DNA from: Syntrophales bacterium
Lineage (GTDB): Bacteria; Desulfobacterota; Syntrophia; Syntrophales; Fen-1087
DNA: 64,000 bases
Reading direction: 5' to 3'
Assembly (NCBI GenBank): GCA_034678725.1
Contig: JAXDBM010000049.1
Location: forward strand, 10,878 to 74,877
Positions 24,295-64,000 of the stretch are shown here, one piece after another. The position numbers were made by a program, and so were the translations under genes. Each line of letters begins with the position of its first letter. Within the stretch, counting starts at the first letter, position 1. The notes beneath the pieces are model-generated. The model did not search any database. It was not told the DNA's origin and was given only the letters and a program-made list of their open reading frames with translations.

Positions 24295-24351
24295 ATTGTC
24301 TTTTCACTTTGCTTCTCATCCCGACGGATTCATGTCGATCGTCTCTTTTTC

Positions 24352-24365
24352 ATTAGTATACTAAT
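24352..24365. promoter_or_regulatory. Perfect 14-bp palindrome, candidate MarR operator
   Basis: ATTAGTATACTAAT lies in the divergent marR/24601 intergenic region, 18 nt upstream of a TTGACA (24383..24388). Confidence 0.4.
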
Positions 24366-24600
24366 CATTTCTGTAGAAATCAATTGACAAATTACAGCGA
24401 TTTCGAATATTCTACACATGCTGCGTGATGATGTGGACCGCTGCAGATGAAATGTGAAACAATATTCAGCCTGCTGCGACCCGCTCATGAAATGCGTCAT
24501 TTCAATCCGCCTGCACACAATCTAATCATTGCAATGACAGTGAATTGCGCGAAAAGAATGAAAACAAGGGCTATTTTTCGATAAGATGAAGGAGGAAATC

Positions 24601-26926: not shown

Positions 26927-27061
26927 AGGCAATGGCACGAAAACATTATCGGTGATGGCGAATGTGTTGACTCGAACGGTTATGATATGAAAAATTAAAT
27001 AATTAGGTCTTGGGCAGGGTTTTTGTCATAAGGTTAAAAAGCGAGCTGTCACCTCCGACTT

Positions 27062-35013: not shown

Positions 35014-35214
35014 GGCGAGATGCGCGCTCCGCTGTGTTTTTCTAAGAAATTCATAGCACAACACGCGGATCCGATCAATGCGGAAAAGACGGCTGTGCCG
35101 GCGGGCGTTGTCCGGGGGGCTGACGCCGCCATGGCGTGTGCAGGGGCAGGGTGCTTCAGCCATGGAAGGCCCGCGGGGTGCCGGGAATGCCTGTCGGCGA
35201 TTCCGTGCCCTGGA

Positions 35215-50403: not shown

Positions 50404-51459
50404 TCAGAGGGGGCCCTTCTTGTCCCGGTGGATCGCGAGGGCGTTCCGGATCAGGGCGGAGATGATCATCCCGGGCAGGAGGCCGGCGCTGGCAGCCTGC
50501 TCGAAGAAAAAGGAGGAGGGTGCCATGCCGGATGAAGAGTTGGGGTCGGTGATCAGGATCCGGCCGTCCTTCAGGCAGAATCCGTCAATGCGGCCGTAGG
50601 AGCGGAATCCAAGGGCATGGTAGGCCCGAAGCACGGATTCCCGGATTCGATCCGCCGTTTCGCGGGGGATGTTTTTCGGCGGCGTGAATTTGCGGCATCG
50701 TCCGGGCATGTACTTGTCGTCATAGGTGTAGTAGGCGCTCTGCGGGTAGATTTCCGTCAGTTCCAGCACCCGGGCCTCTCCATCGTCCTCCAGGACGATG
50801 GCGGAAAATTCGATGCCGTCGAGATACTCCTCCACCAGGGCGGCGTTGTCCCATTGGAGGGCGGCGTCGATGCCCGCCGCGAGGCCGGCCGGATCGTCCA
50901 CACGGGTGACGCCGACGCTCGATCCTTCGCGGGTCGGTTTCGTGAAGAAGGGGAAGGAAAACCGCTCCAGGATCTCCTTTTGGACGGCCTCCCGCCTTTC
51001 CCGCCAGTCCCATGCGGTAACGACCATGCTGCGCGGCACATCGATTCCCTCCGACATCAGGACTTTCTGCTGGAGATGCTTGTCCATGCCGAGGGCGGAT
51101 GCCAGGACGCCGGGGCCGGTGTAGGGGATGTTCAGGAGTTCGAGCAGCCCCTGGATGCAGCCGTCGTCCCCGTACTTTCCGTGCAGGGAGATGAAGGCGA
51201 AATCGATTTCCCTTTTCAGGTCCTCGTAGGCGATCCGGCGGGCCTCCCCTTCGAGGTGGTCGGAGATGTCCAGGGTCGTGTTCTGGGAGATGAGCTGCCA
51301 CGGAATGACCCACAGCCTCCCCTCGGCGTCCATGAAGATGGGAACGGCCCCATACAGCTCGGGGTCGAGGTTGTCGTGAACGTTCCTTCCGCTGTTGAGG
51401 GAGACCTCACGTTCCGAAGACATCCCCCCCAGAATGATCCCGATGCGCAGTTTTTTCAT
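50404..51459 (-). CDS. ddl: D-alanine--D-alanine ligase (paralogue 2; canonical omega-loop Lys-Tyr)
   Basis: ATG 51459. IILGGMSSEREVSLNSG and LHGKYGDDGCIQGLLELLNIPYTGPG. The omega-loop YYTYDDKYMPG resembles E. coli DdlB FYDYEAKY. Confidence 0.9.
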   Translation of the reverse strand: MKKLRIGIILGGMSSEREVSLNSGRNVHDNLDPELYGAVPIFMDAEGRLWVIPWQLISQNTTLDISDHLEGEARRIAYEDLKREIDFAFISLHGKYGDDGCIQGLLELLNIPYTGPGVLASALGMDKHLQQKVLMSEGIDVPRSMVVTAWDWRERREAVQKEILERFSFPFFTKPTREGSSVGVTRVDDPAGLAAGIDAALQWDNAALVEEYLDGIEFSAIVLEDDGEARVLELTEIYPQSAYYTYDDKYMPGRCRKFTPPKNIPRETADRIRESVLRAYHALGFRSYGRIDGFCLKDGRILITDPNSSSGMAPSSFFFEQAASAGLLPGMIISALIRNALAIHRDKKGPL

Positions 51460-51734
51460 CGTCTCTTCCCGGAGTCGCGCCGCCGCGGGCATCGCGCCCG
51501 GATCGCGTCCGGTCGGCTGCACGTTCGGCTGAGGCGCCCCTTCCAATTATTTTTTTACGGTTCGTGCCGCATTTCATACTTTACAACGGCTTTACCGTCG
51601 AGGAAATGTTTTGCCGTATATCACAGTCGGCGGGCGGTGGGAAGACCGTGCAAGTAGGGCGGGCCGGAGACGGCCTGAAGGTCCGGGCCGCGGCCGGCGG
51701 ACCGTCGAACGCATGACCGGTGACGGGGCTGCGG

Positions 51735-53720
51735 CTACGCCCAGATAAATGTGACGCCGCTGGTGGGAAAGATCCACTCGTCGTCGCTGATCCGGAGTGT
51801 GATGGACCGGTCCTTCACTCGGGTGATCACCGGTGAGGGGTTCCTCCCGGCGAAGAAGCTGATCTCCCGGACATTCCGGACGCGCGCCCCCTCGTAGTTG
51901 AAGCGGATGTCCAGCCCCCGCGTGGGGTAGACCAGATAAACGGAGAACAGGTTGTTGCGCTTCGATTTCTTGGTCACGATTTCGATTGCAATCCTGGCCT
52001 GGCGGTTGACTTTTTTCTTCAGATCCTCGCCGCCGCACCAGACCTCGTAGCCCCGGTCCGTGATTTCCGTCCGAATGATGGGGACCGGATCATCGTCGAT
52101 ACAGACGCGGCTCACCCGGAAATCCTTTTCCGTGATCGCCTCGTCGCGTTGGCCGAGCAGCCAGCGGTACTCGCACCGCTTATCGTCGAACAGCGAGGCG
52201 AGCTGCTCGTTATTCATGGCGCAGCCGATCATGAAGACGGGATGGCTGAGGGCCTTGGTGTATTCGATGCGCGTGGTGACCTTGAAATCATCTCCGGACG
52301 GGCGATCGGAGGCCATTTCCGCCTCCGTGAATTCCTCGATGTGGATGTCGTAGCGGAAGTTCGTCCGCAGCTCGAGCTGCCGGTCCTCCTTGCCGAACAG
52401 GGTTTCGAACATCTCGTAGTAGATGGCGTCGCCCAGCTCCTCGCTGCGCGCCCGGGTCTGGAGGCAATGCCGGAGGATGTTGTCGATGCGGGCAAGGGAT
52501 TTTTCCTCGTCGGGGATGAAGACCCTCCGGAGGCGGGGAGCCACGGTGTCCGTTTTGCCCTTCTGCAGGAAGACCCGCGGCGCCCGCTTGCCCAGGGCGC
52601 ACAGGATCTCGTAGCTGATGGTCCGGATGCGGTTCGCGATCTCGTTGGCGGTGATCGCTTCGCTTCCCTGCCGGCCGAGGATCACCACCTCGTCCCCCAC
52701 TTGGCAGTCCTGAATGTGGCTGACATTGACGGTGCACATGTCCATGGAAACCCGCCCGACGATGGCGGCCCGCTTTCCCTGAATGAGCACCTCGCCCTGG
52801 TTCGACAGGAGCACGTCGTAGCCGTCCCCGTAGCCGACGGGGATCGTCGCGATCCGGGTGGGCTTGTGGGTCATATAGGTCCGGTTGTAGCCGATGCTGT
52901 AGCCTTCCGGAAACTCTTTGATGAGCACGATCCGGGTCTTGAAGCTCATGACCGGGGCGAGGCTCGCCTTTCCTGCGGTGTCGGGCGAGGGGTAGATGCC
53001 GTAGGACATGATGCCCGGCCGGACCATGTCCAGGTGGAACCCGGGGTAATTGAGGATGCCCCCGCTGTTGCACATGTGCCGGACGGGAATCCGGACCCGG
53101 TGGGCCGCCAGCTTGTCCAGCAGATCCTTGAACAGGCGCCACTGCCGGTCGTTGTACTCGATCATCACCTCGCTGGCCGCCAGGTGGGTGAAGATCCCCT
53201 CGACAACGACGTTCGGAAATGCGAGGATTTCCCGGATCATGTCGAAGGCCTCGTAATGGATGGTGCCGCCGCGGCCCATCCCGGTGTCCACCTCGATGTG
53301 TATGGGGGCCTTGATCCCCGCCTTGCGGAACTGCCTCTGCAGCTCCCGGGCAAAACAGATGTCGGAGACCGACGGTGTCAGGTTGTACTTGATGATCTGG
53401 CCGATTTCGTAATCCGGCGAGGGGCTGAGGATGACGATGGGTGCGCTGATGTCGCTGACCCGGAGCTGAACGCCCTCATCCGCGTTGGCGACGCCGAGGC
53501 AGGCCGCGCCGTTTTTCAGCGCCACATTGGCGATTTCCATCGCGCCGTGCCCGTAGGCGTCGGCCTTCACCACCTGCATGATGCGCACGGCAGGGCCCAC
53601 GAGCCGCTTCATCTCATTCCAGTTTTGGGTGAAGTGATCGAGGTCGACTTCCACCCAGCTTCTGTACCGCTGTTCCTCTTTCAACGCCATGTCCCCTGTC
53701 CCCGGGCCGCTTCCACACAT
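51735..53720 (-). CDS. alr: Alanine racemase fused to a ~276-aa C-terminal domain of unknown function
   Basis: The PLP-lysine block VVKADAYGHG and the Alr fold to about aa 385 (..ISYEILCALGKRAPRVF). A further 276 aa have no motif I recognise. ATG 53690 is an alternative start. Confidence 0.85.
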   Translation of the reverse strand: MCGSGPGTGDMALKEEQRYRSWVEVDLDHFTQNWNEMKRLVGPAVRIMQVVKADAYGHGAMEIANVALKNGAACLGVANADEGVQLRVSDISAPIVILSPSPDYEIGQIIKYNLTPSVSDICFARELQRQFRKAGIKAPIHIEVDTGMGRGGTIHYEAFDMIREILAFPNVVVEGIFTHLAASEVMIEYNDRQWRLFKDLLDKLAAHRVRIPVRHMCNSGGILNYPGFHLDMVRPGIMSYGIYPSPDTAGKASLAPVMSFKTRIVLIKEFPEGYSIGYNRTYMTHKPTRIATIPVGYGDGYDVLLSNQGEVLIQGKRAAIVGRVSMDMCTVNVSHIQDCQVGDEVVILGRQGSEAITANEIANRIRTISYEILCALGKRAPRVFLQKGKTDTVAPRLRRVFIPDEEKSLARIDNILRHCLQTRARSEELGDAIYYEMFETLFGKEDRQLELRTNFRYDIHIEEFTEAEMASDRPSGDDFKVTTRIEYTKALSHPVFMIGCAMNNEQLASLFDDKRCEYRWLLGQRDEAITEKDFRVSRVCIDDDPVPIIRTEITDRGYEVWCGGEDLKKKVNRQARIAIEIVTKKSKRNNLFSVYLVYPTRGLDIRFNYEGARVRNVREISFFAGRNPSPVITRVKDRSITLRISDDEWIFPTSGVTFIWA

Positions 53721-53984
53721 CCTTCCTGAAACCGCGACGTGCGAATCATACCAGAGGCTTCGGTGTTGTCAAGGCAAAGCTCGGACTTGGTTTGTGGAAA
53801 CAGCCATTGGAAATTTTCCATTATCCGTCCGATCGTCGCTGTCGAACACCTGCTTCGACCGCCCTCTCTGGCTCCGCTCGCGCTCCGCCGATCAAGGCCG
53901 TTCGAGCAGACCCCGCCCCAAGGGGCTGTAACGATCCATCGTTCGCATAAAGAGAGAAAAATCCTTGCTGCTATGACGTTATGG

Positions 53985-54002
53985 TGTTATAGATACATAA
54001 CA
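53985..54002. promoter_or_regulatory. Inverted repeat upstream of the TA operon (candidate antitoxin operator)
   Basis: TGTTAT-N6-ATAACA, 18 nt upstream of ATG 54020. Confidence 0.35.
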
Positions 54003-54019
54003 ACATGGGGGGTGATAAT

Positions 54020-54253
54020 ATGAAATCAGCAGCAACACGCGCCACCGTATACCTGGACCCGGAATTACATAAAGCTCTTCGCTTAAAGGCAGTTGAAACA
54101 TCACAGTCTCTATCGAAATTAGTGAATGATGCCATCAAAGAATCTCTGGCGGAAGACGCTGAAGACATTGCAGCTTTTGGGGAAAGAGTTAAAGAGCCCT
54201 TAATCAGTTACGAAACAATGATCAAGAGGCTGAAAATCGATGGCAAAATATGA
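54020..54253 (+). CDS. Ribbon-helix-helix (CopG/RelB-like) type II antitoxin
   Basis: ATG 54020 preceded by GGGGGTGA. RATVYLDPELHKALRLKAVETSQSLSKLVNDAIKESL is an RHH pattern. It overlaps the toxin gene by 14 nt. Confidence 0.75.
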   Translation: MKSAATRATVYLDPELHKALRLKAVETSQSLSKLVNDAIKESLAEDAEDIAAFGERVKEPLISYETMIKRLKIDGKI

Positions 54254-54497
54254 AATCTATTTCAAACAATCCGTCGAAAAAGACTTCCGTGCGATACCCA
54301 AAAAAGATTTAAGGAAGATTATCCATTGCATTGAGGCGCTTTCTAAAGATCCGAGACCCCCAGGCCATGAAAAACTAACAGGGCAAGAGAGATACCGTGT
54401 TCGACAAGGGCGGTACAGGATTATCTATTCCGTTCAGGAGAAAGAGCTTACAATTTGGATCGTGAAGGTGGGGCATCGAAGAGATGTTTATCGCTGA
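54240..54497 (+). CDS. relE: RelE/ParE-family type II toxin
   Basis: YRVRQGRYRIIYSVQEKELTIWIVKVGHRRDVY, the typical RelE/StbE C-terminal signature. Confidence 0.85.
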   Translation: MAKYEIYFKQSVEKDFRAIPKKDLRKIIHCIEALSKDPRPPGHEKLTGQERYRVRQGRYRIIYSVQEKELTIWIVKVGHRRDVYR

Positions 54498-54811: not shown

Positions 54812-55762
54812 ATGACGGCTTCAAGAAACAGGGTGGCCGCGGTCTTTCCGGGGCAGGGCGCCCAGCGGCCTGGCATGGGGCGGGACTTCCATGACCGCGC
54901 CGCCGTCTGCCGGGAGACCTACGAGGAGGCATCGGATGCGCTGGGTTGGGACGTTGCCGCCATGTGCTTCGGGAACGACGAGCGGCTGGACCGAACGGAG
55001 TACACGCAGCCCTGCCTGCTGACGACGGAACTGGCAATGTTCCGGGGACTTTGCGAGCTGCATGGGATTCATCCGTCCCTTTACGGGGGTCACAGCCTCG
55101 GCGAGTTTACCGCCCTGGTCGCGGCCGGCGTCATTCCCCTTTCCGATGCCGTCCGGATCGTGCAGTCGCGGGGCAGGCTGATGCAGGAGGCGGCCCCGGC
55201 CGGCCTGGGCGGAATGGCGGCGGTGATTGCCGACGCGCTGGATGCCGACGACCTCGATCACGCCCTGTCCGATCTTCCCGTCGATATCGCGAATGTCAAC
55301 TCGCCGAAGCAGATCGTTCTCAGCGGGGCCGCGGAGGCCCTGTCCGAGGCGGCGGTCCGGATCGTCGATGTCCTGGAGGAAGGCAGGCCCTTCCGCTTCG
55401 TTCCCCTCAATGTCAGCGCCCCCTTTCACAGCCGGTTCATGCGCTGTGTGGAGGGCGAATTTTCAAGGATCCTCCAGTCCCTGAGCGAACGGATGGACGC
55501 GAAAAAAGCCGTCGCGGTCACTTCCAATTTCACCGGCGGATTCCACGAAACGAACCCGGATGATCTGCTGAGCGCCCTCACCTGCCAGATCGGGAGCCGG
55601 GTCCGCTGGGTGGACAACATGGAAGCCATCGCCGCGGAGGCCGATCGGATCTACGAAATCGGCCCGGCCCGGCCGCTCCGGGAATTTTTCAAATCGATCG
55701 ATGTCCACTGCCTGTCCGTGACGACGCTTTCCTCGGCGTCCCGGCTGTTCGGGAGCAATTGA
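54812..55762 (+). CDS. fabD: Malonyl-CoA:ACP transacylase
   Basis: AAVFPGQGAQRPGMG and active-site GHSLGEFTALVAAG. ATG 54812 lies 7 nt after AAGGGAGG; ATG 54806 is an alternative. Confidence 0.9.
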   Translation: MTASRNRVAAVFPGQGAQRPGMGRDFHDRAAVCRETYEEASDALGWDVAAMCFGNDERLDRTEYTQPCLLTTELAMFRGLCELHGIHPSLYGGHSLGEFTALVAAGVIPLSDAVRIVQSRGRLMQEAAPAGLGGMAAVIADALDADDLDHALSDLPVDIANVNSPKQIVLSGAAEALSEAAVRIVDVLEEGRPFRFVPLNVSAPFHSRFMRCVEGEFSRILQSLSERMDAKKAVAVTSNFTGGFHETNPDDLLSALTCQIGSRVRWVDNMEAIAAEADRIYEIGPARPLREFFKSIDVHCLSVTTLSSASRLFGSN

Positions 55763-55765
55763 GAC

Positions 55766-56965
55766 ATGGACTTCCATCTGAACGATCAGCAGCAGATGTA
55801 TGTGGACACGGTCCGCCGCTTCGTCCGGACGGAGATCCTGCCGCAGGTCATGGACATGGAACGGAAACACGTTTTCCCCATGCAGATCATCCGCAAGGCC
55901 TGGGAGACGGGCATCCTCAATCTCAGCATTCCGGACGCGATCAAGGAGTACGAGATCGACGCCGTATCGTCCGCGCTGATCATCATGGAGCTTTCCTACG
56001 GCGATTCGGGGATCGCCACGTCGGCCATGTGCAACGATCTCGCCAACGTGATCATCGCCCGTCATGGGAGCGCCGCACAACAGGAGCGGTTCCTCCGCCC
56101 CTTCGTCGAAAGGCCGCTGTTGGCTTCCTTCTGCCTGACCGAACCGGGTGCAGGCTCCGACAACGGCGCCATGATCTCCTGCATGAGCAAGCAGGCGGAC
56201 GGCTCGTACCGGCTCAACGGAACGAAATGCTTCATCACCAATGCCTCCTACGCATCCCAGTTCACGGTCTTCTGCAAGGTGGGAAAGCCGGGCAGTTCGC
56301 TGATGGCCTGCGTCGTCGTTCCCGCCGGGTCCGTTTCCCCGGAAGATATGCAGGGCGATGGAGAAGGGATCCGGGAGATCGACATCGCGGCGGGCGGGAA
56401 AATCGTCGTCGCGAAGGCGGAGGACAAGCTCGGGCAGCGCCTGTCCAACACGGCCGGTGTCACCTTCGAGGACGTGGTGATTGCCCCCGACCAGATCATC
56501 GGGGACCGGCGTCTGGGATTCCGCTACATCGTCGATGTCCTCGACTACGCCCGGCCCATGGTGGCGGCGATCGGCGTCGGGCTGGCGAGGCGCGCGCTGG
56601 ATGTCACGCTGGCCTACACCCGGGAGCGCCGCCAATTCAGCCAGCGCATCTGCGACCTTCCAGTGGCGCGGGAATCGCTGGTGGCCATGTGGAAAAAAGT
56701 GGAAATGGCGGAGATGGCCCTGCTGAAGTCCGCCTGGAAACTCCAGACGGGGGCGCCGGACGGCGGCCTCTACGCCTCGCTGGCGAAAAATGCCGCAGCG
56801 GAGGCGTCCCTCTTCTGCGCGAACGAGGGGCTCCACCTCCACGGCGGCTACGGATTCATGTCGGAATACGAGATTTCGAAGCTGGTCCGGGACGCCCATA
56901 TCCTCGACATCTACGAGGGCGTCCGGGAGGTCCAGAACATGATCATCGGCCGGGAGCTGGTCTGA
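55766..56965 (+). CDS. Acyl-CoA dehydrogenase-family flavoenzyme (possibly acting on acyl-ACP)
   Basis: ACAD fold: CLTEPGAGSD, FITNA and the C-terminal catalytic-Glu block DIYEGVREVQ. It starts 3 nt after the fabD stop, and its stop overlaps the fabH start (TGATG). Confidence 0.9.
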   Translation: MDFHLNDQQQMYVDTVRRFVRTEILPQVMDMERKHVFPMQIIRKAWETGILNLSIPDAIKEYEIDAVSSALIIMELSYGDSGIATSAMCNDLANVIIARHGSAAQQERFLRPFVERPLLASFCLTEPGAGSDNGAMISCMSKQADGSYRLNGTKCFITNASYASQFTVFCKVGKPGSSLMACVVVPAGSVSPEDMQGDGEGIREIDIAAGGKIVVAKAEDKLGQRLSNTAGVTFEDVVIAPDQIIGDRRLGFRYIVDVLDYARPMVAAIGVGLARRALDVTLAYTRERRQFSQRICDLPVARESLVAMWKKVEMAEMALLKSAWKLQTGAPDGGLYASLAKNAAAEASLFCANEGLHLHGGYGFMSEYEISKLVRDAHILDIYEGVREVQNMIIGRELV

Positions 56966-57954
56966 TGGCGCTTTACCTGCACGGTCTGGGTCACTTCCAC
57001 CCGGAGAACGTGATCTCCAACCGTTTCCTCGAGGAGCTGGACATCGGCACGACCCAGGAGTGGATCATGGAGCGGGTCGGCATTCAGGAGCGCCGCACGG
57101 CCCTTTCCCTGGACTATATTCAGGCGACGCGGAACCGCGATCCGCGGGCGGCGCTGGAGGCGAGCAGCCATACGAACGCGCGGATCGGCGCGGCGGCGGC
57201 CCGAATGGCCTTGGATCGGGCGGGGCTCGGTCCGGAGGACATCGGCCTCGTCGTTTCCGGAAGCTCGGCCCCGGACCACGTCACGCCCGCCGAGGCGGCG
57301 GTGGTGGCGGCGGAACTGGACATCGAAGCGCCCTGTTTCGACATGAATGCCGCCTGCGCCACCTTTGGCGTGCAGATGCATTTTCTGAGCGGAATGCGGC
57401 CGGAAGCGCTTCCGCCTTACGTCCTGGTGGTCAACCCGGAGAGCCTCACCCGCTGCGTCGATTATTCGGACCGGAACACGGCTGTGCTCTTCGGGGACGG
57501 CGGCACGGCGGCCGTCGTCTCGGCGGCCGTGCCGTCGCGCATTCATGTTCAGGACTGCCGTTGCGATGCCCGGCCGTCGGCCTGGCGGAAGGCGTCGATT
57601 CCCCGTACCGGCTATTTCCGGCAGGAGGGGAACGCCGTCCAGGGGTTTGCAATCCGCCGCATGACGGACACCGTCCGAATGCTTCAGGATTCCCACGGCC
57701 GCAACGGCCATCGCTTTCTCTTCGCCGGACACCAGGCGAACCTGGGAATCCTGCAGACGGTCTGCGCGCGGACGGGAATCGCGGAGGATCACCACTGGCA
57801 CAATGTGGTCCGCTTCGGCAACGCCGGCTGCTCGGGCGCGCCTGCGGCCGTGAGCCAGCGCTGGGGCGATCTGAAGCCGGGCGACCGTCTGGCCATGGCT
57901 TTCGTGGGCGCGGGGCTGAGCTGGGCGTCTCTGATGCTGGTAGTCGAGGAATGA
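56965..57954 (+). CDS. fabH: 3-oxoacyl-ACP synthase III (FabH-like)
   Basis: These are the last 329 codons of track ORF 55759..57954. Cys-His-Asn triad contexts DMNAACATFG, GHQANLGI and FGNAGCSG. Confidence 0.85.
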   Translation: MALYLHGLGHFHPENVISNRFLEELDIGTTQEWIMERVGIQERRTALSLDYIQATRNRDPRAALEASSHTNARIGAAAARMALDRAGLGPEDIGLVVSGSSAPDHVTPAEAAVVAAELDIEAPCFDMNAACATFGVQMHFLSGMRPEALPPYVLVVNPESLTRCVDYSDRNTAVLFGDGGTAAVVSAAVPSRIHVQDCRCDARPSAWRKASIPRTGYFRQEGNAVQGFAIRRMTDTVRMLQDSHGRNGHRFLFAGHQANLGILQTVCARTGIAEDHHWHNVVRFGNAGCSGAPAAVSQRWGDLKPGDRLAMAFVGAGLSWASLMLVVEE

Positions 57955-57996
57955 CGGAAAGATATCGATGATACGCATTTTGCGGGGATGTGAAGC

Positions 57997-58602
57997 ATGA
58001 GAATCGGTTACCGGGAATTCCGGGAGAGGAAAAGTTTCGGCCTGGCTGACCTGATCGCCTTTTCCCGCGGCAGCCTGGTGGCGGATCCCCCGGCGGGATT
58101 CGAGGCAAGGCTGCCCGCCCCGCCGTTCCTGATGGTGGACCGCATCCTGCGGATCGAGGCCGACGGACGGAGGGGAAAGATCGTGGCGGAGCAGGACATC
58201 CGCCTGGACGCCTGGTATTTCCAGTGCCATATGCCCGGGGACCCGGTGCAGCCGGGCTGTTTGTGCGTGGATGCCGTCTGGCAGCTCCTGGGATTTTACG
58301 GGACCTGGCGTGGCGGTCTGGGTGCGGGGAGGGCGCTGGGGTGCGACGGGGTGGCCTTTACCGGCCAGATCCGGCCCTACCACCGAGTCGTACGTTTCGA
58401 AATCGACATTCGCCGCTTTGCCGTTCTGGCCGATTCGGGAGCCGGCATCGTGATCGGCGACGGCGCGATCTCCGTCGACGGCGAGCCCGTTGCCGAGGTC
58501 CGTCAGGCCCGGACAGGCCTGTTCCGGGGAATCGTCTATGGCGGTTACCCCTGGCCGGAAAGCGCCGGGGAAGGGCGCATGCCGGCCGGTTGCACGGCAT
58601 GA
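57997..58602 (+). CDS. fabA: FabA-type 3-hydroxyacyl-ACP dehydratase / trans-2-decenoyl-ACP isomerase homologue
   Basis: LPAPPFLMVDRI and YFQCHMPGDPVQPGCLCVDAVWQLLGFY align with E. coli FabA LPAPNMLMMDRV and [28 protein letters not shown]. The catalytic His and Asp are retained. Confidence 0.85.
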   Translation: MRIGYREFRERKSFGLADLIAFSRGSLVADPPAGFEARLPAPPFLMVDRILRIEADGRRGKIVAEQDIRLDAWYFQCHMPGDPVQPGCLCVDAVWQLLGFYGTWRGGLGAGRALGCDGVAFTGQIRPYHRVVRFEIDIRRFAVLADSGAGIVIGDGAISVDGEPVAEVRQARTGLFRGIVYGGYPWPESAGEGRMPAGCTA

Positions 58603-58613
58603 AGGGGGAAGCG

Positions 58614-59357
58614 ATGGCATCATCCGGTCAGCCGGACCAACCCGTTGCGGTTGTAACCGGAGCCGCCACGGGCATCGGGGCCGCCTGCGCCCGAGCGCTG
58701 GCGGAGAAGGGCTTTCGGGTCGGCATTCACTATCGGCGCAGCACCGCTGCGGCCGGGGCCCTGATGGCCGAGCTGGGTGAAGCATTCCTGCTCCGCGGGG
58801 ACTTGTCGCGGGAAGAGGATGTCGATGGCATCGTGGAGCGGATCAAGGACGAGGCGGGGCGGGTGGACGTCCTCGTCAACAATGCGGGCCTGTCGCTCAA
58901 TGCCGACATCCACGCCATGCGCCTCGAACAGTTCGACGAGCAGCGGGCCCTGACGCGCGGGACCTGGTACCTGACCAAGCGCATCCTGCGGCAGTTCATG
59001 ATACGACGCAACCGGGGGCGGATCATCAACATCACCAGCGTCGTCGGACACACGGGCAACGGGGGGCAGATCGCCTACACGATGGAGAAGGCCGCCCTGG
59101 ACGCCTTCACCCGGTCCCTCGCGAAGGAGCTGGCGGGCCGGGACATTCTTGTGAATTCGATTGCGCCCGGCTTCATCGACACGGACATGACGGCGGACCT
59201 TCCGGAAGAGGTCCGGGAACGCATCCTCGCCGGCATTCCCATGGGGAGAATGGGCAGGCCGGACGAAGTGGCCGAGGTGGCGGCCTTCCTGGCCAACGGC
59301 GGGAGCTACATCACGGGCTCCGTGATCCACGTCAACGGGGGGCTCTATGGCGGCTGA
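58614..59357 (+). CDS. fabG: 3-oxoacyl-ACP reductase (SDR, FabG-like)
   Basis: TGAATGIGAA, NNAG, and YTMEK (the YxxxK motif). ATG 58614 follows AAGGGGGA; ATG 58599 (ATGA overlap with fabA) is an alternative. Confidence 0.85.
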   Translation: MASSGQPDQPVAVVTGAATGIGAACARALAEKGFRVGIHYRRSTAAAGALMAELGEAFLLRGDLSREEDVDGIVERIKDEAGRVDVLVNNAGLSLNADIHAMRLEQFDEQRALTRGTWYLTKRILRQFMIRRNRGRIINITSVVGHTGNGGQIAYTMEKAALDAFTRSLAKELAGRDILVNSIAPGFIDTDMTADLPEEVRERILAGIPMGRMGRPDEVAEVAAFLANGGSYITGSVIHVNGGLYGG

Positions 59358-59817
59358 CGAACAAATGAAGGCGATCATTCTGAAGGCGATTCCCCAGCAG
59401 CCGCCGTTCCGTTTCATCGACGAGTTGCTGGAGCTGGATGACGATCGCAGCATCGGCGCCTACCGGTTCCGGCCGGACGAGTACTTCTACCGGGGGCATT
59501 TTCCCGGACGTCCCGTGACGCCCGGCGTCATCCTCATCGAGGCCATGGCCCAGACGAGCATCGTCGCCCACGGGCTGTACCTTTCCATGAAGAAAAGTGG
59601 ATCGTCTCCGGATGACTTGAAGCGAATCAGCACCCTGTTCACCTGCGCCGAAACGGTGGAATTCACCGGGATCGTGGCGCCGGGCGAGCGGATCGTCTTC
59701 CGGGGGGAAAAGGTCTATTTTCGCATGGGGAGCCTGAAGGCAAAAATTGTTGCGGAGCGGGAGACCGGGGAAGTCGTCTGCCGGGGAACGCTGGCCGGCA
59801 TGGGGGTCCGTTTATGA
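59347..59817 (+). CDS. FabZ-like hot-dog fold 3-hydroxyacyl-ACP dehydratase
   Basis: PPFRFIDEL and YRGHFPGRPVTPGVILIEAMAQ match the FabZ catalytic His/Glu block. Overlaps fabG by 11 nt. Confidence 0.75.
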   Translation: MAADEQMKAIILKAIPQQPPFRFIDELLELDDDRSIGAYRFRPDEYFYRGHFPGRPVTPGVILIEAMAQTSIVAHGLYLSMKKSGSSPDDLKRISTLFTCAETVEFTGIVAPGERIVFRGEKVYFRMGSLKAKIVAERETGEVVCRGTLAGMGVRL

Positions 59818-61094
59818 AAAAGCGAGTCGTGATTACGGGCATGGGGGTGACCGCGCCGAATGCCCACGGGCTGGAGGCCTTTGAGTCGGCCCTGCGCGAG
59901 GGCCGGTCGGGGATCCGCTTCATCCCGGAGCTGAAGGAGTTGAATTTCGCCTGCCAGGTGGGCGGCATCCCGCAGGATTTCGAAAGGATCCGCAAGCAGT
60001 ATTTCGATCATGAAAAGCTGCTGTCGATCAACGACAACATCGGCTATGCCTCCGTCTCGGCCATCGACGCCTGGCGGGATGCCGGCTTCGACATCCCGGA
60101 TCCCGAAGACGACCGGGTCGACTGGGACACGGGGATCGTGATCGGATCCGGAATCGGCGGCATGGATACGATCGCCCGTTCCGTCGTGCCGATGGTGAAC
60201 GACGGCAAGGTCCGCAGGCTGGGAAGCCGGATCGTCGAGCAGGTCATGAACAGCGGCACCAGCGCCCGGATCGCCGGGCTGCTGGCACTGGGGAACCAGG
60301 TGACTTCCAATTCGTCGGCCTGCAGCACCGGCAACGAGGCCATCATCGAGGCCATGCTGAAGATCCGGACGGGCCGGGCCAGGCGGATGCTGGCTGGAGG
60401 CTCGGAAGGGGCCTCGCCCTACATCTGGTCCGGGTTCGACGCGATGCGCGTCATCTGCCGGAAGTTCAACGAAGCGCCGGAGCAGGCCTCCCGGCCCATG
60501 AGCGCCACCGCGGGCGGCTTCGTTCCCGGCGCCGGCGGGGCGGTGCTGGTCCTGGAAGATCTGGAGACGGCCAGACGGCGCGGCGCGCGCATCTACGCCG
60601 AGGTCCTCGGCGGCGCCCTGAACTGCGGCGGCCAGCGCCGGGGCGGGTCCATGACGGCGCCCAACCCGGACGGCGTCAGCCGCTGCATCCGCGGGGCCAT
60701 CGCGGACGCGAATGTTTCGCCCCGCGACATCGACGCCATCAACGGCCACCTGACGGCCACCTATGCTGACCCCATGGAAGTCCGGAACTGGTCCGCGACG
60801 CTCGGCCTTCCGCCGGAGGATTTTCCCCTGATCAACGCGACGAAATCACTGATCGGACACTGCCTCGGCGCCGCCGGGGCCATCGAAAGCGTCGCCGCCG
60901 TCCTGCAGATCCACAGGGGGTTCGTCCATCCCTCGGCAAACTGCGAGGATGTCCACCCCGAACTGGAGCGCTTCGCCGACAAAATCCCCCGAAAGGCCGT
61001 GGACGTGCCCGGCCTCAAGATCGTCGCCAAGGCCGGATTCGGATTCGGCGACGTCAACAGTTGCCTGATCTTCCGAAAATGGGAAGAGAATTGA
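59814..61094 (+). CDS. 3-oxoacyl-ACP synthase I/II (FabB/FabF-like elongating KS)
   Basis: Cys-His-His triad contexts SNSSACSTGNEAI, INGHLTAT and KSLIGHCLGAAGAIE. ATGA overlap with the upstream gene. Confidence 0.9.
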   Translation: MKKRVVITGMGVTAPNAHGLEAFESALREGRSGIRFIPELKELNFACQVGGIPQDFERIRKQYFDHEKLLSINDNIGYASVSAIDAWRDAGFDIPDPEDDRVDWDTGIVIGSGIGGMDTIARSVVPMVNDGKVRRLGSRIVEQVMNSGTSARIAGLLALGNQVTSNSSACSTGNEAIIEAMLKIRTGRARRMLAGGSEGASPYIWSGFDAMRVICRKFNEAPEQASRPMSATAGGFVPGAGGAVLVLEDLETARRRGARIYAEVLGGALNCGGQRRGGSMTAPNPDGVSRCIRGAIADANVSPRDIDAINGHLTATYADPMEVRNWSATLGLPPEDFPLINATKSLIGHCLGAAGAIESVAAVLQIHRGFVHPSANCEDVHPELERFADKIPRKAVDVPGLKIVAKAGFGFGDVNSCLIFRKWEEN

Positions 61095-61124
61095 AAGCGC
61101 AAACAAAATCAAAGGAGTTTTCAT

Positions 61125-61370
61125 ATGGATGAGAAACAGATTTTTGCGGAGATGATCGGCATTCTGAGGGTGTACACGAAGGACGCGACCCTCCTGGACA
61201 AAGCCACGCCGGCCACCCACATCCTGGACGATCTCAAGGTCAATTCCGCCCGCCTGGTGGATGTGATCATCAAGTGCGAGGACGTCTTCGGGATCACGAT
61301 CGAGGACGACGAGGCCGACAAGATCCGCACCATCGGCGATGCCGTTGAACTGGTCAAGAAGAAGCAATGA
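61125..61370 (+). CDS. Acyl carrier protein (dedicated)
   Basis: 81 aa, acidic helical bundle, with a putative phosphopantetheine serine in LDDLKVNSARLVD. Confidence 0.85.
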   Translation: MDEKQIFAEMIGILRVYTKDATLLDKATPATHILDDLKVNSARLVDVIIKCEDVFGITIEDDEADKIRTIGDAVELVKKKQ

Positions 61371-62188
61371 CTTTTCCCGCGGCTTTTCAGATCCGTCTGC
61401 AGTCCTTCCTGGGGCTCGCGGTCGCCTGGATCCTGGCGCCGGCCTATTTCCTCCTGATCCGCATCGCGGGCTGGCGCGTCAGGGACCTCGCCGGAACCCG
61501 AAAACGATGGGCGGAACTCCGGAAGGGCCATCAGGGGCCCTGGCTGGTCTGCGGCAATCATCTGACCATGGTCGATTCCATGATCATGACCTACTCCATG
61601 ACGTCCCTGGGAGGGCACCTCACGGCTTACCGGAGTCTGCCCTGGAACCTGCCGGAGCGGACCAACTTCAATCGAAACAAGCTGTTGGCCGCCCTGTGCT
61701 ATCTGGCGAAGTGCATTCCGGTGAGACGGGGCGGCGCCCGGGAGGAAATGCGCGGCGCCCTCGCGAAATGCGATCATCTGCTGCGCCGGCGGCAGAACCT
61801 CATGGTCTTTCCCGAGGGGGGCCGATCCCGGACCGGCCGGGTCAACCGGGAGGATTTCTCTTACGGCGTCGGGCGCTTTCTTCAGGACCACCCGGACTGC
61901 CGCGTGGCGTGCGTCTATCTGCGGGGCGACGGGCAGGATGTCTACGGGACGCTGCCCCGGCGGGGCGAATCGTTTTCGGTGATGCTCGAGGAGTTCCGGC
62001 CCTGCCGGAACGGGCTGCGGGGGTTGCGGGAACAGCGGGACCTTGCGGGTCAGATCGTTCGGCATCTGGCCGGAATGGAGGAAAGGCACTTTGATCTGCA
62101 TCGGCAACGATATTGTGGACTTGAACCATCCGGGAAACCGGGGAAAAAGCCGGGACCGGCGCTTCGTTTCCCGTGTCTTCACCCCTGA
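61367..62188 (+). CDS. PlsC/LPLAT-family acyltransferase (lysophospholipid acyltransferase-like)
   Basis: The HX4D motif (GNHLTMVDS) and FPEGGRSRTG. ATGA overlap with the ACP gene. Confidence 0.8.
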   Translation: MTFPAAFQIRLQSFLGLAVAWILAPAYFLLIRIAGWRVRDLAGTRKRWAELRKGHQGPWLVCGNHLTMVDSMIMTYSMTSLGGHLTAYRSLPWNLPERTNFNRNKLLAALCYLAKCIPVRRGGAREEMRGALAKCDHLLRRRQNLMVFPEGGRSRTGRVNREDFSYGVGRFLQDHPDCRVACVYLRGDGQDVYGTLPRRGESFSVMLEEFRPCRNGLRGLREQRDLAGQIVRHLAGMEERHFDLHRQRYCGLEPSGKPGKKPGPALRFPCLHP

Positions 62189-62837
62189 GGAGCGGGAACG
62201 GATCGACGGCGCCGACGCGCCTGATGCGGTGCTCTGGATGCTGTGGGCCGCAAAAGAGGCCGCCTTCAAGGCGGCCGTCAAGCGAAGACAGGGGATCCCT
62301 TTCATCCCCCGAATGTATTCGGTCGCTCTTGAAGATCGTTCATATTCCGGTGATTGCGGGCAGGGCAATCCGCATGGCATCTCGATGGCGTCCGGCATCG
62401 AGGAAGAGCGGTCCGCTGCACACTGCGGCGTCGTCATGACGCCCGCGGGCCCCGTCGAGCTTTCCTGTTTCCGCTCCGCCGGCCATGTCCACTGTGTCGC
62501 GGTCGTGAACGGCGCATACCGCACGGCCCAGCCCGATTCCGGTGTTCGCGCCTTCGTCAGAAAACTGACCGGCCCCGCCGATCCCTCCATTGCGCTTCGC
62601 CTGGAGACCATTCACTATCTGGCTTCCGCCTTGAGGATTTCCCCCTATTTCATTCGAATCCGCCGCGAGAAGATGGGTGCCGAATCCGGCCCCCCCAGGA
62701 TTTTCATGGAAGGGCGGCCCGCGGACATCGACATCAGCCTGAGCCACGACGGCCGGTACATCGCCTTTGCCGTTCACCTGCCGGGCGCAGGGTATGCGTC
62801 CGAACGCCGCCAGGCGGTCCCTGCCTGCGCTTTCTGA
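62091..62837 (+). CDS. 4'-phosphopantetheinyl transferase superfamily protein
   Basis: ICIGNDIVDL, WAAKEAAFKA and ISLSHDGRYIAFAV motifs. There is no ATG. TTG 62091 lies 9 nt after GGAGG (TTG 62043 is an alternative). The gene overlaps the acyltransferase gene by ~98 nt. Confidence 0.7.
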   Translation: MICIGNDIVDLNHPGNRGKSRDRRFVSRVFTPEERERIDGADAPDAVLWMLWAAKEAAFKAAVKRRQGIPFIPRMYSVALEDRSYSGDCGQGNPHGISMASGIEEERSAAHCGVVMTPAGPVELSCFRSAGHVHCVAVVNGAYRTAQPDSGVRAFVRKLTGPADPSIALRLETIHYLASALRISPYFIRIRREKMGAESGPPRIFMEGRPADIDISLSHDGRYIAFAVHLPGAGYASERRQAVPACAF

Positions 62838-63099: not shown

Positions 63100-64000
63100 G
63101 TGTTGAAAGATAACGAGAAAGTCGGCGCGGTAATGGTCGTCGGGTCGGGCATCGCCGGTATTCAGGCGTCCCTGGACCTCGCAAATTCCGGTATGAAAGT
63201 GTACCTCGTGGAGAACGGGATCAGCATCGGCGGCGTCATGGCCCAGCTCGACAAGACCTTTCCCACCAATGACTGCTCGGCCTGCATCCTCTCCCCGAAG
63301 CTTGTGGAAGTGGGGCGTCATCCCAACGTGGAGATCATGACCCGCCGCACGGTGGAGTCCGTGGAGGGCGAGCCGGGCAGATTCAAGGTCAAGCTGACCC
63401 GGGCCCCCCGGTTTGTCGATCTGGACAAGTGCACGGGCTGCGGCGACTGCGCCAATGCCTGCCCCGTGTCCGTCAAGTCGGATTTCAACGAAAACCTGAA
63501 CGAGCGCAAGGCCACCTACCGCCATTTCCCCCAGGCCATACCCAGCGGTTACGCCATCGACAAACTCGGGACCTCCCCCTGCAAGGCGGCCTGTCCCACC
63601 CATATCAGCGTCCAGGGCTATGTGGCCCTCATCTCCGCGGGCAAGTACAAGGAAGCCCTCAAGCTCATCAAACAGGAGAACCCCTTCCCGTCCGTCTGCG
63701 GCCGGGTCTGCAACCATCCCTGCGAGGAGGCCTGCATGCGGGGCAAGGTCGAAGCGCCCATCGACATCATGCACCTCAAGCGCTTCGTGGCCGATCTGGA
63801 CCTGAACGCCGAGACCCGCTACATCCCGGAAGTCAAGGAGAAAAAAGATAAAAAGGTTGCCGTTGTCGGCGCCGGTCCGTCCGGCCTGACGGCCGCCTAC
63901 TATCTGGCCGCGAACGGATATGGCGTGGATGTCTTTGAAGCCCTGCCCGTGGCCGGCGGCTGGATGGCGGTGGGGATCCCCGAATACCGCCTCCCCAAGG
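63100..64000 (+). CDS. HdrA-like FAD/Fe-S oxidoreductase with an inserted GltD-like NAD(P)H module; the 3' end lies outside the window
   Basis: Not in the ORF track because no stop falls inside the window. GTG 63100 lies 7 nt after AGGAG. VMVVGSGIAGIQASLDLANSG, DKTFPTNDCSACILSPKL (HdrA signature), CTGCGDCANACP, then NPFPSVCGRVCNHPCEEAC and VAVVGAGPSGLTAAYYL (GltD-like). Confidence 0.8.
   Translation, partial: MLKDNEKVGAVMVVGSGIAGIQASLDLANSGMKVYLVENGISIGGVMAQLDKTFPTNDCSACILSPKLVEVGRHPNVEIMTRRTVESVEGEPGRFKVKLTRAPRFVDLDKCTGCGDCANACPVSVKSDFNENLNERKATYRHFPQAIPSGYAIDKLGTSPCKAACPTHISVQGYVALISAGKYKEALKLIKQENPFPSVCGRVCNHPCEEACMRGKVEAPIDIMHLKRFVADLDLNAETRYIPEVKEKKDKKVAVVGAGPSGLTAAYYLAANGYGVDVFEALPVAGGWMAVGIPEYRLPK

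Follow-up and report, generated by a model that had tools for sequence, protein, structure and literature searches.

In a window of 64,000 nucleotides from a Syntrophales bacterium (contig JAXDBM010000049.1), ten consecutive genes resemble a type II fatty acid synthesis (FAS) line with a flavoprotein of the acyl-CoA dehydrogenase family (ACAD) in its midst. The locus raises the question of how such a line would complete its elongation cycle, and what the ACAD contributes to it.

Gene content and organization of the operon

The ten genes occupy positions 54812–62837 and are tightly coupled (Table 1). All open reading frames and junctions were as described in the first-pass annotation: the ACAD stop and the FabH start share a TGATG at 56965, FabG and the FabZ-like gene overlap by 11 nt (59347–59357), ATGA overlaps lie at 59814 and 61367, and the LPLAT and PPTase genes overlap by 98 nt (62091–62188). 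Pfam and NCBIfam profiles, whose use that annotation had proposed, confirmed the domain call of each protein. The catalytic residues, which it had read as intact in all ten, are present and strictly or almost strictly conserved, as judged from alignments of 47–84 orthologues, or by eye for FabD, FabH and FabG. The operon is real and previously uncharacterised; we found no publication or curated family that covers it.

Table 1. Genes of the operon in order, with positions in the window.
Product	Position	Strand	Length (aa)	Features
FabD-like malonyl-CoA:ACP transacylase	54812..55762	+	316	GHSLGE conserved
ACAD-family flavoprotein, proposed enoyl-ACP reductase	55766..56965	+	399	Three ACAD Pfam domains, all present
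FabH-like KAS III	56965..57954	+	329	PF08545 + PF08541
FabA-type 3-hydroxyacyl-ACP dehydratase / trans-2,cis-3 isomerase homologue	57997..58602	+	201	NF003509
FabG-like 3-ketoacyl-ACP reductase	58614..59357	+	247	Ser/Y-x3-K
FabZ-like hot-dog dehydratase	59347..59817	+	156	PF07977, 58.5 bits
KAS I/II-type elongating ketosynthase	59814..61094	+	426	PF00109 + PF02801; Cys-His-His conserved
Dedicated atypical ACP	61125..61370	+	81	Signature DLK(V/I)NSARLVD; PF00550, 24.4 bits
PlsC/LPLAT-family acyltransferase	61367..62188	+	273	N-terminal hydrophobic segment; PF01553, 45.4 bits
AcpS-type 4'-phosphopantetheinyl transferase (PPTase)	62091..62837	+	248	Long internal insert; PF01648, 47.9 bits, residues 4-62

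All components except FabA scored below the NCBIfam housekeeping (equivalog) cut-offs. FabD (PF00698, 106 bits) reached 237.6 bits with the fabD model TIGR00128 (cut-off 260.9), FabH 194.5 bits with NF006829 (cut-off 249) and FabG 239.9 bits with TIGR01830 (cut-off 297.75); alternative ATG starts lie upstream of FabD at 54743 and for FabG at 58599. The Cys/His/Asn triad of FabH (Cys/HQAN/GN) is conserved, and FabG carries its Y-x3-K as YTMEK and lacks Y-x6-K. The FabZ-like protein, with conserved Glu and His of GHFPG, gave 67 bits with the fabZ model TIGR01750 (cut-off 155), and 15.3 and 11.9 bits with the ApeI-like and ApeP-like models, both below cut-off; its gene lies directly upstream of KAS in all variants seen except one (L099), where the reductase gene is immediately followed by KAS. 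The KAS scored 297.7 bits as fabF (cut-off 493.75) and 262 bits as FabB (cut-off 630), and is about equally distant from solved FabB and FabF structures. In an exhaustive search its own clade (41–62% identity) outranked canonical FabF/FabB. The FabA homologue reported earlier proved to be a genuine FabA (188.6 bits with NF003509, above the cut-off of 124), aligning end to end with the E. coli and P. aeruginosa enzymes and conserving the equivalents of His70 and Asp84.

The ACP fell below all NCBIfam ACP cut-offs, and a query with E. coli AcpP did not match it at E<=1e-3; the Ser within NSARLVD is conserved. In the LPLAT the HX4D motif (NHLTMVD) is invariant, and no sequence relative was found in the PDB. 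The PPTase retains GNDIVD, KEA and SLSHD motifs and starts at a TTG within the LPLAT gene, preceded by GGAGG. A TTG start with ATGGAGGA upstream was seen in most loci printed, and a few have ATG candidates further upstream. The frame relation of the two genes is kept in 64/64 related loci, with a median overlap of 101 nt. Gene callers frequently missed or shortened the PPTase.

The best PDB match of the ACAD was MCAD (3mdd, 1.5e-67), with the catalytic Glu of YEG aligned, and its top NCBIfam match was the acryloyl-CoA reductase AcrC, at 230 bits and far below the cut-off. No other protein of the operon is as well conserved: 41% of its alignment columns are invariant over 84 sequences. The earlier annotation had stated that the operon contains no FabI/K/L/V-type gene; by Pfam and NCBIfam domains none is called within it or up to 10 kb on either side.

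Conservation across Syntrophales

The operon is conserved throughout the order: the same gene order was present in 80 species-representative genomes, which excludes a chance arrangement and answers the neighbourhood question raised in the first-pass annotation. In 53 fully covered Syntrophales loci the ACAD, FabG, FabZ-like protein, KAS, ACP, LPLAT and PPTase were always present (53/53), and FabH (48/53), FabD (41/53) and FabA (29/53) were optional. Flanking genes varied from genome to genome.

Could this be the housekeeping FAS of Syntrophales, the sole fab set of the genome, with an enoyl reductase elsewhere or in the form of the ACAD? Identities among Syntrophales loci are housekeeping-like (70–95% for KAS, 62–91% for ACP), the FAS complement is nearly complete, and neither the 64-kb window nor any flank fetched showed further fab genes. 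We nevertheless regard this explanation as very unlikely. FabD is absent from 12 and FabH from 5 of the 53 operons, so other copies must exist; FabD, FabH, FabG, the FabZ-like protein, KAS and ACP are all sub-cut-off, and the ACP escapes an AcpP query. The ACP is also orthologous to that of clearly accessory operons, for example in Flavobacteriaceae, where an ACP/KAS/DH/ER/PPTase module adjoins and feeds a type III PKS. The private PPTase further implies that AcpS does not serve the operon ACP. Together, the sub-cut-off components, the atypical ACP with its PPTase, and the sister module feeding a type III PKS point to an accessory line. With its variable flanks, this agrees with the earlier description of a specialised, self-contained FAS-like line equipped with an ACP, PPTase and acyltransferase of its own, and the operon appears largely independent of housekeeping FAS.

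Homologous operons outside Syntrophales

Operons with the same ACP signature were found in Caldithrix, Bacteroidia, Sphingobacteriales and marine Flavobacteriaceae; the Sphingobacteriales variant has the order FabZ-like-KAS-KAS-ACP. The Caldithrix, Bacteroidia and Flavobacteriaceae operons lack the ACAD and instead encode a FabL/FabI-type enoyl reductase (ENR) of the SDR family. Its best PDB match was B. subtilis FabL (3oic) and its best NCBIfam match FabL, at 112–146 bits; PF12241 (Enoyl_reductase) gave 37.3 bits against a cut-off of 22.1. Every homologue (59/59) carries Y-x6-K; the window FabG has Y-x3-K instead. The FabL score lies well below the equivalog cut-off of 328, a point against the enoyl-reductase reading of the ACAD proposed below.

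The closest of these operons are of the Caldithrix type (KAS 63–65% identity), with the order SDR-FabH-FabA-FabZ-like-KAS-ACP-LPLAT-PPTase and no FabG. Here the SDR takes the exact position of the ACAD, directly upstream of FabH. In one locus (L158) FabD is followed after 34 nt by the ENR-type SDR, mirroring FabD-ACAD in the window. Among 64 loci retrieved by searching with the SDR, none contained an ACAD orthologue or FabG; the sole ACAD-family match, in L158, had 31% identity over half the protein and lay ~4 kb upstream. Conversely, no SDR orthologue was present in the 80 Syntrophales loci. ACAD and SDR are thus mutually exclusive in the loci compared, which supports the ACAD as the enoyl reductase.

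This distribution bears on an earlier suggestion that the operon is an iterative KS/KR/DH line without enoyl reductase, whose product, a conjugated polyene acyl chain like those of aryl-polyene (APE) clusters, the LPLAT would anchor to a lipid. The lack of a canonical enoyl reductase and the pairing of a dedicated ACP with an LPLAT would fit, but homologous operons of three other lineages carry a dedicated reductase. The only KS of the operon is FabF/FabB-like and a CLF is absent, scores with the ApeI/ApeP models are sub-cut-off, and fabF outscores the APE-type KS models by a wide margin. The adenylating enzyme, thioesterase, LolA-like and MMPL genes, already noted as missing, were in none of the flanks examined. 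A polyene line is therefore highly improbable.

The other earlier suggestion was a FabX-like backtracking route, in which the ACAD would act as an acyl-ACP dehydrogenase that puts a trans-2 bond back into saturated acyl-ACP, for isomerisation by FabA (or the FabZ-like protein) to the cis-3 form used by KAS, with enoyl reduction left to a housekeeping enzyme encoded elsewhere. ACADs of the MbtN, RedW/PigA and FkbI types act on carrier-protein-bound substrates, and these gave weak NCBIfam matches here; the ACAD catalytic Glu is intact, and the FabA on which the proposal relied is genuine, with its His and Asp. The proposal is weakened by the 24/53 operons that lack FabA and all retain the ACAD. 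Moreover, FabA is present in all Caldithrix-type loci, and these have an ENR rather than a dehydrogenase at the ACAD position. Likeness to acyl-ACP dehydrogenase models is negligible (MbtN, 33.8 bits against a cut-off of 700). We consider this route rather unlikely.

A proposed enoyl-ACP reductase

The reading we prefer, which the first-pass annotation had not considered and to which we give about an even chance, is that the ACAD serves as the enoyl-ACP reductase of the line. The preference arises because an ENR-type SDR occupies its position in homologous operons. It is supported by the gene content, one gene per FAS activity save the enoyl reductase plus one otherwise unexplained redox enzyme. 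The ACAD, always retained while FabA, FabH and FabD are dispensable, is therefore not tied to FabA, as desaturation or isomerisation would require, or to FabH, as for primer tailoring. Bcd/Etf, AcrC, CarC and the Syntrophus cyclohexanecarboxyl-CoA dehydrogenases are established examples of ACAD-family enzymes that work reductively in their physiological setting. This, with AcrC as the top NCBIfam match, lends support to a reductive role. We know of no biochemical precedent for an ACAD as enoyl-ACP reductase in fatty acid synthesis; confirmation would add a new type to the known enoyl-ACP reductases.

On these grounds the operon may, with similarly balanced confidence, be an accessory type II FAS line with the ACAD in the enoyl-reductase slot. 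The PPTase would activate the dedicated ACP, FabD would load it with malonate, FabH would prime from acyl-CoA and KAS would elongate. Reduction of the 3-keto group would fall to FabG, and dehydration to the FabZ-like protein together with FabA; the ACAD, working reductively and supplied with electrons by reduced ETF or some other donor of low potential, would then reduce trans-2-enoyl-ACP. Where present, FabA, as a putative isomerase, could add a cis double bond together with KAS, much as FabA and FabB do in E. coli. The chain built on the operon's own carrier is predicted to pass to the membrane-lipid acyltransferase, LPLAT moving it from ACP to a lyso-lipid acceptor. Against this reading, no etfAB or other electron-donor gene is present in the operon. 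Also, FabG could have replaced the SDR, with the ACAD an unrelated addition in the vacated position.

Alternatively, the ACAD might act on acyl-CoA, tailoring the FabH primer by reducing or oxidising short, branched or alicyclic acyl-CoA, or linking beta-oxidation intermediates to the line. Its translational coupling to FabH through TGATG and its MCAD/AcrC-like character, with no recognisable ACP-specific feature, are consistent with this. In three Smithellaceae loci FabD-ACAD is retained next to a type-2 3-hydroxyacyl-CoA dehydrogenase, with no KAS, ACP or LPLAT nearby; this gives a hint of activity on acyl-CoA and counts against the preferred reading. However, the 5/53 operons without FabH still have the ACAD, and Flavobacteriaceae and Bacteroidia keep the reductase in the slot without a canonical FabH, although in one Flavobacteriaceae locus (L116) a type III PKS gene lies immediately upstream. 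Nor would a primer tailor be expected to be the operon's most conserved protein. We judge an acyl-CoA role to be improbable.

Comparison with known systems

Like Bcd/EtfAB, AcrC, CarC and the flavin enoyl reductase FabK, which physiologically reduce an alpha,beta-enoyl thioester, the ACAD is a flavoprotein that would act in the reductive direction. Bcd, AcrC and CarC differ in using CoA esters in fermentation and in adjoining etfAB, and FabK is a member of the FMN TIM-barrel enzymes, an unrelated family.

APE clusters share discrete KS/KR/DH enzymes, a dedicated ACP and an LPLAT-family acyltransferase, which in APE attaches the product to a lipid. Their KS-CLF pair, two ACPs, ApeI/ApeP dehydratases, adenylating enzyme, thioesterase and LolA/MMPL export are absent from the window operon, and they lack an enoyl reductase, whereas relatives of the window operon encode one. 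The rhizobial AcpXL cluster (acpXL-fabZXL-fabF2XL-fabF1XL-adhA2XL-lpxXL) likewise pairs a specialised ACP with a dehydratase and KS of its own and with an acyltransferase dedicated to depositing the product, for accessory elongation beside housekeeping FAS. This very-long-chain fatty acid cluster has two KS, uses an LpxL-family rather than a PlsC-family acyltransferase, and lacks FabH, FabA, KR, PPTase and ACAD; it looks more like the Sphingobacteriales variant than like the window operon.

With the dissociated FAS II of E. coli (FabA/FabB branch) the operon shares discrete FabD, FabH, FabG, FabZ-like, FabA, KAS and ACP proteins. It differs in that all but FabA are divergent paralogues that fall short of the housekeeping cut-offs, the ACP is without the DSL signature and comes with a PPTase of its own, an LPLAT is included, and an ACAD is found instead of FabI/K/L/V. 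The Caldithrix, Bacteroidia and Flavobacteriaceae operons (L093, L095 and L116) have orthologous KAS (51–65% identity), FabZ-like dehydratase, ACP with DLK(I/V)NSA and AcpS-type PPTase. They differ from the window operon in their FabL/FabI-type reductase and lack of ACAD, FabG and, mostly, FabD, and the end of the Flavobacteriaceae version holds no LPLAT but a type III PKS, a methyltransferase and flavin oxidoreductases. The Caldithrix type specifically also has FabH, FabA and LPLAT in common with the window operon, in the same order.

Operon layout and surroundings

The ten co-directional open reading frames proposed in the first-pass annotation were all recovered at its positions, and every domain assignment was upheld by Pfam and NCBIfam. 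The five overlaps were also confirmed, namely TGATG at 56965, 11 nt at 59347, ATGA at 59814 and 61367, and 98 nt at 62091–62188. Catalytic residues read as intact in the window are all kept across orthologues, and no FabI/K/L/V-like gene was found in the operon or within 10 kb of it. Overall, the observations of that annotation stood, whereas its interpretation held only in part, since both of its readings of the pathway (considered below) are unlikely.

Genes of the operon, with positions in the window
Gene	Position	Strand	Basis
FabD	54812-55762	+	ORF reading, Pfam/NCBIfam
ACAD (acyl-CoA-dehydrogenase-family flavoprotein)	55766-56965	+	ORF reading, Pfam/NCBIfam
FabH	56965-57954	+	ORF reading, Pfam/NCBIfam
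FabA	57997-58602	+	ORF reading, Pfam/NCBIfam
FabG	58614-59357	+	ORF reading, Pfam/NCBIfam
FabZ-like dehydratase	59347-59817	+	ORF reading, Pfam/NCBIfam
KAS (KAS I/II-type ketosynthase)	59814-61094	+	ORF reading, Pfam/NCBIfam
ACP	61125-61370	+	ORF reading, Pfam/NCBIfam
LPLAT (PlsC-type acyltransferase)	61367-62188	+	ORF reading, Pfam/NCBIfam
PPTase (AcpS-type)	62091-62837	+	ORF reading, Pfam/NCBIfam

Identical sequences are present in Syntrophaceae bacterium PtaB.Bin095 (OPY06970-OPY06977, contig MVQT01000104.1), and operon sequences recur in many anaerobic-digester metagenomes. The PPTase gene starts inside the LPLAT gene, ~100 nt from its 3' end (window 62076-62188), and in most loci printed the start codon is TTG with ATGGAGGA upstream. 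The relative frame of the two genes was constant in 64/64 related loci, with a median overlap of 101 nt. Across this stretch the LPLAT tail is poorly conserved, and the PPTase is often missed or truncated by gene callers.

The stretch directly upstream of the operon (50404-54497) has two D-Ala-D-Ala ligase genes, the second copy being farther upstream (~48.4-49.5 kb), and a 651-aa alanine-racemase fusion on the minus strand. An RH3-domain/ParE toxin-antitoxin pair follows on the plus strand (54005-54497). The G+C content of positions 24001-28000 is 0.50-0.52, versus ~0.61 for the window. Rfam returned no RNA family between 50 and 64 kb, no tRNAs were found in the window, and the open reading frame at 33622-35163 is not on record.

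Component identities

The components were compared with the NCBIfam/TIGRFAM equivalog cut-offs for fabD, fabH, fabG, fabZ, fabF and acpP. All scored below them: FabD 237.6 bits (cut-off 260.9), FabH 167.2 (292.1), FabG 239.9 (297.75), the FabZ-like protein 67.3 (155.15), KAS 297.7 (fabF, 493.75) and ACP 44.2 (70.45). FabA alone was not under its equivalog cut-off, scoring 188.6 bits against NF003509 (cut-off 124). It aligned end to end with FabA of E. coli and P. aeruginosa (1mka, 4b0b), and the equivalents of His70/Asp84 were invariant in 47 orthologues. Judged by model score and active site, it is a true FabA, its isomerase activity being only predicted. The first-pass annotation had called a FabA homologue unusual in this genomic context, and genuine FabA homologues do extend well beyond alpha- and gammaproteobacteria.

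The KAS has the Cys-His-His residues, lies at about equal distance from solved FabB and FabF structures, and did not reach the cut-off of the FabB (KAS I) model NF005935 (262 of 630 bits). The sole SDR of the operon, FabG, has the Y-x3-K arrangement of ketoreductases. In the ACP, the DSL signature is absent and an invariant NSARLVD stands in its place; an E. coli AcpP query did not detect this protein. LPLAT matched PF01553 with 45.4 bits and has the HX4D motif, and no sequence relative of it was found in the PDB.

Conservation within Syntrophales

A search for ACAD orthologues gave 467 species-representative genomes, the best 80 of which all belong to Syntrophales (Syntrophaceae, Smithellaceae, Syntrophus, Smithella). 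Architectures were counted in the 53 loci that span the whole region, and four were distinguished (table below). The gene-neighbourhood check suggested by the first-pass annotation showed that ACAD, FabG, FabZ-like, KAS, ACP, LPLAT and PPTase are kept in 53/53 of these loci, while FabH (48/53), FabD (41/53) and FabA (29/53) are optional. Median identity to the window was 74% for KAS, 75% for ACP, 72% for ACAD, 52% for LPLAT and 35% for PPTase, and the largest share of invariant columns belonged to ACAD (41%, 84 sequences). Since the flanks vary from genome to genome, the operon is self-contained.

Gene orders in Syntrophales and in related loci of other lineages
Lineage	Loci	Gene order
Syntrophales	19/53	FabD-ACAD-FabH-FabG-FabZl-KAS-ACP-LPLAT-PPT
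Syntrophales	17/53	the same plus FabA (window type)
Syntrophales	12/53	window type without FabD
Syntrophales	5/53	neither FabH nor FabA
Caldithrix	L093/L094	SDR-FabH-FabA-FabZl-KAS-ACP-LPLAT-PPT
Bacteroidia	L095	ACP-SDR-FabZl-KAS-PPT
Sphingobacteriales	L091/L092	FabZl-KAS-KAS-ACP
Flavobacteriaceae	L116	FAD oxidoreductase, YceI, FAD monooxygenase-like, methyltransferase, type III PKS, SDR-FabZl-KAS-ACP-PPT

That the operon represents the housekeeping FAS of the cell is very improbable. All components but FabA fall below housekeeping cut-offs, and FabD, which any malonyl-dependent ketosynthase requires, is absent from 12/53 operons. These two features argue for a separate housekeeping fab set elsewhere in the genome. 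Approximate E. coli AcpP and FabI queries against the window and 90 loci gave only weak FabG cross-matches for housekeeping acpP/fabI.

Several loci carry additional genes. In five FabD-less Syntrophaceae loci (L015, L016, L021, L028, L034), two minus-strand genes divergent from the operon are found upstream of ACAD (~6.3-9.8 kb), one for a membrane sensor kinase (507-604 aa, raw ORF call) and the other for a response regulator of the NtrC type (~456-475 aa). This pair is absent from the window and may be a dedicated regulator of the operon. In Smithella-type loci (L040:8462-9874, also L055 and L082) a 470-aa gene is inserted between FabD and ACAD; it encodes a carboxyltransferase 5S/oxaloacetate-decarboxylase-alpha-like protein without a biotin domain (NF006761, 633 bits), which may supply malonyl-CoA to the line via transcarboxylation. 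L040, L070 and L082 share an SDR gene downstream of the PPTase; it was considered as a hidden enoyl reductase and rejected, as it is a type-2 3-hydroxyacyl-CoA dehydrogenase (4o5o, 2.4e-84). In three Smithellaceae loci (L051:7907-10863, L053, L060), where only FabD-ACAD are still adjacent, the same type-2 3-hydroxyacyl-CoA dehydrogenase (HSD17B10-like) comes immediately next; KAS, ACP, LPLAT and PPTase are absent from these loci.

Related modules outside Syntrophales

An exhaustive KAS search over 1.84 billion representatives yielded ~25 stand-alone KAS clusters with 41-62% identity to the window KAS, which outrank canonical FabF/FabB (~34-38%). Named members of this clade came from Sphingobacteriales, Chitinophagales, Bacteroidia, Caldithrix and marine samples. 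The ACPs of the Caldithrix, Bacteroidia, Sphingobacteriales and Flavobacteriaceae loci all carry DLK(I/V)NSA(R/N)LVD, and on this basis the modules are orthologous. We define the module family by a DLK(I/V)NSA ACP that neighbours a KAS from the 41-65% clade, together with a FabZ-like dehydratase and an AcpS-type PPTase, and the window operon has all four.

The SDR of these modules differs from the window FabG. FabL was its top NCBIfam match in 6/6 members tested (112-146 bits, below the 328 cut-off), and B. subtilis FabL (3oic) its top PDB match. PF12241 (Enoyl_reductase) was matched with 37.3 bits versus a cut-off of 22.1, and the motif Y-[AGT]-A-V-S-A-A-K-x-x-[LVM]-E (Y-x6-K) was invariant or nearly so in 59/59 homologues. 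Hence, the SDR is of the enoyl-reductase type. A metagenome scan with this SDR as query gave 64 loci, 13 of Caldithrix type (some partial) and ~15 of SDR-FabZl-KAS-ACP type. No ACAD orthologue and no FabG were found in the 64 loci; the single ACAD-family match (31% identity) lies ~4 kb upstream in metagenome locus L158. Conversely, a Y-x6-K SDR orthologue was absent from the window and all 80 Syntrophales loci.

In L116:5393-13317, a marine Flavobacteriaceae metagenome contig, the ACP/KAS/FabZ-like/reductase/PPTase module immediately follows genes for a type III PKS, a methyltransferase and a pair of FAD oxidoreductases. The whole resembles a phenolic-lipid (alkylresorcinol/alkylquinone-type) cluster that provides its own acyl chains. 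The Sphingobacteriales MAGs (L091:9518-13098 and L092) have a minimal variant with a pair of ketosynthases, near which neither a reductase nor LPLAT or PPTase is found.

ACAD as a candidate enoyl-ACP reductase

The N-terminal, middle and C-terminal domains of ACAD (PF02771, PF02770, PF00441) all exceeded their cut-offs. The protein is MCAD-like (3mdd, 1.5e-67), and the Glu of its YEG motif, aligned with the catalytic base Glu376 of MCAD, is invariant in 84 sequences; the middle domain has a variable insert of ~30 residues. Its top NCBIfam match was the acryloyl-CoA reductase AcrC, with every ACAD equivalog far below cut-off. Models of carrier-protein ACADs were not reached either (MbtN 33.8 of 700, RedW 146 of 650, PigA 162 of 500).

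In Caldithrix-type operons the SDR lies directly upstream of FabH, the position held by ACAD in Syntrophales, and in L158 the SDR begins 34 nt after a FabD orthologue (52% identity), an arrangement parallel to FabD-ACAD in the window. Across four lineages, the module always comes with one enoyl-thioester reductase candidate. This positional exchange is the pattern of non-orthologous gene displacement. Furthermore, ACAD is retained in the 53 loci regardless of FabA or FabH. Anaerobes are known to use ACAD-family enzymes reductively, as in Bcd/Etf, AcrC, CarC and the Syntrophus alicyclic acyl-CoA dehydrogenases. For these three reasons we favour, at even odds, the reading that ACAD would reduce enoyl-ACP within a dedicated FAS line whose product LPLAT would transfer onto a lyso-lipid.

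The same evidence bears on the alternatives. A FabX-like desaturase, in which ACAD dehydrogenates acyl-ACP ahead of FabA, was one of the two first-pass readings and is unlikely, given that the presence of ACAD is independent of FabA. A role for ACAD in tailoring a CoA-level primer is more doubtful still, being weakened by the persistence of ACAD without FabH. The other first-pass reading, a polyene line without any enoyl reductase, we consider extremely improbable. Aryl-polyene, PUFA-synthase and ladderane-type clusters were excluded by domain content and model scores, and cispentacin and flexirubin models gave only weak matches below cut-off.

Three points count against ACAD as the reductase. 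The exchange partner of the SDR could instead be FabG, the operon has no electron-donor genes, and the three Smithellaceae loci in which FabD-ACAD adjoin a 3-hydroxyacyl-CoA dehydrogenase, with the remaining operon genes missing, are not explained by it. We know of no precedent for an ACAD as a FAS enoyl reductase, and full-text literature searches gave no paper on the operon or on an ACAD-type enzyme of this kind.

A broader form of the reductase reading, which we hold at slightly less than even confidence, is that ACAD belongs to an unrecognised class of enoyl-ACP reductase that replaced a FabL/FabI-type enzyme in the Syntrophales ancestor and passes electrons of the ETF/acyl-CoA-dehydrogenase pool into lipids. 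Electrons of this pool are the hardest disposal problem for syntrophic oxidisers of fatty acids and benzoate, and syntrophs could conceivably channel them at the ETF level into lipid synthesis.

A gene for a ~1475-aa multidomain Fe-S/FAD oxidoreductase (Fer4, Fer4_20, several Pyr_redox_2) begins 266 nt beyond the PPTase gene, on the operon strand (63103-64000, continuing beyond the window end). Since its presence here is not shared by other Syntrophales loci, a tie to the electron supply of ACAD is speculation.

Significance and comparison with known systems

We describe the operon as an accessory type II FAS module whose reductase slot is occupied by a flavoenzyme without known precedent. Enoyl-ACP reduction is the most variable step of bacterial FAS and a major antibiotic target, and to our knowledge only a handful of reductase classes exist (FabI, FabL, FabK, FabV). 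If an ACAD-type enzyme fills the slot, a mechanistically different class would be added. Syntrophales play a key part as syntrophs in anaerobic digesters and sediments, and an operon that occurs in all of their fully covered loci suggests a membrane-lipid feature not yet described. More generally, the comparison defines a portable module of special ACP, private PPTase, KAS, dehydratase and reductase, with an output that differs by phylum (LPLAT in the window, type III PKS in marine Flavobacteriaceae).

Compared with known systems, the operon follows the working logic of dissociated FAS II, FabA branch included, yet is distinct from the housekeeping set. It has the FabA His70/Asp84 pair of the FabA/FabB pathway but not the FabB equivalog partner. 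A dedicated ACP and an LPLAT-family acyltransferase are common to the operon and aryl-polyene clusters; however, the latter have a KS-CLF pair and two ACPs, compared with one ketosynthase and one ACP here, and the FabZ-like protein scored below the ApeI/ApeP dehydratase cut-offs (PF22818, 15.3 versus 28.5; PF22817, 11.9 versus 27). As the first-pass annotation had pointed out, the adenylating enzyme, thioesterase, LolA-like and MMPL genes of those clusters are missing from the ten genes and the annotated flanks. The rhizobial AcpXL cluster shares the logic of a dedicated ACP plus acyltransferase, but its defining features are lacking in the operon; the FabZ-like-KAS-KAS-ACP layout of the Sphingobacteriales loci resembles it. 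PUFA synthases consist of multidomain PfaA-C and an NMO-type enoyl reductase, PfaD, whereas the operon proteins are single-domain and their PfaA matches partial and weak. The nearest relatives of the operon are the uncharacterised operons found here.
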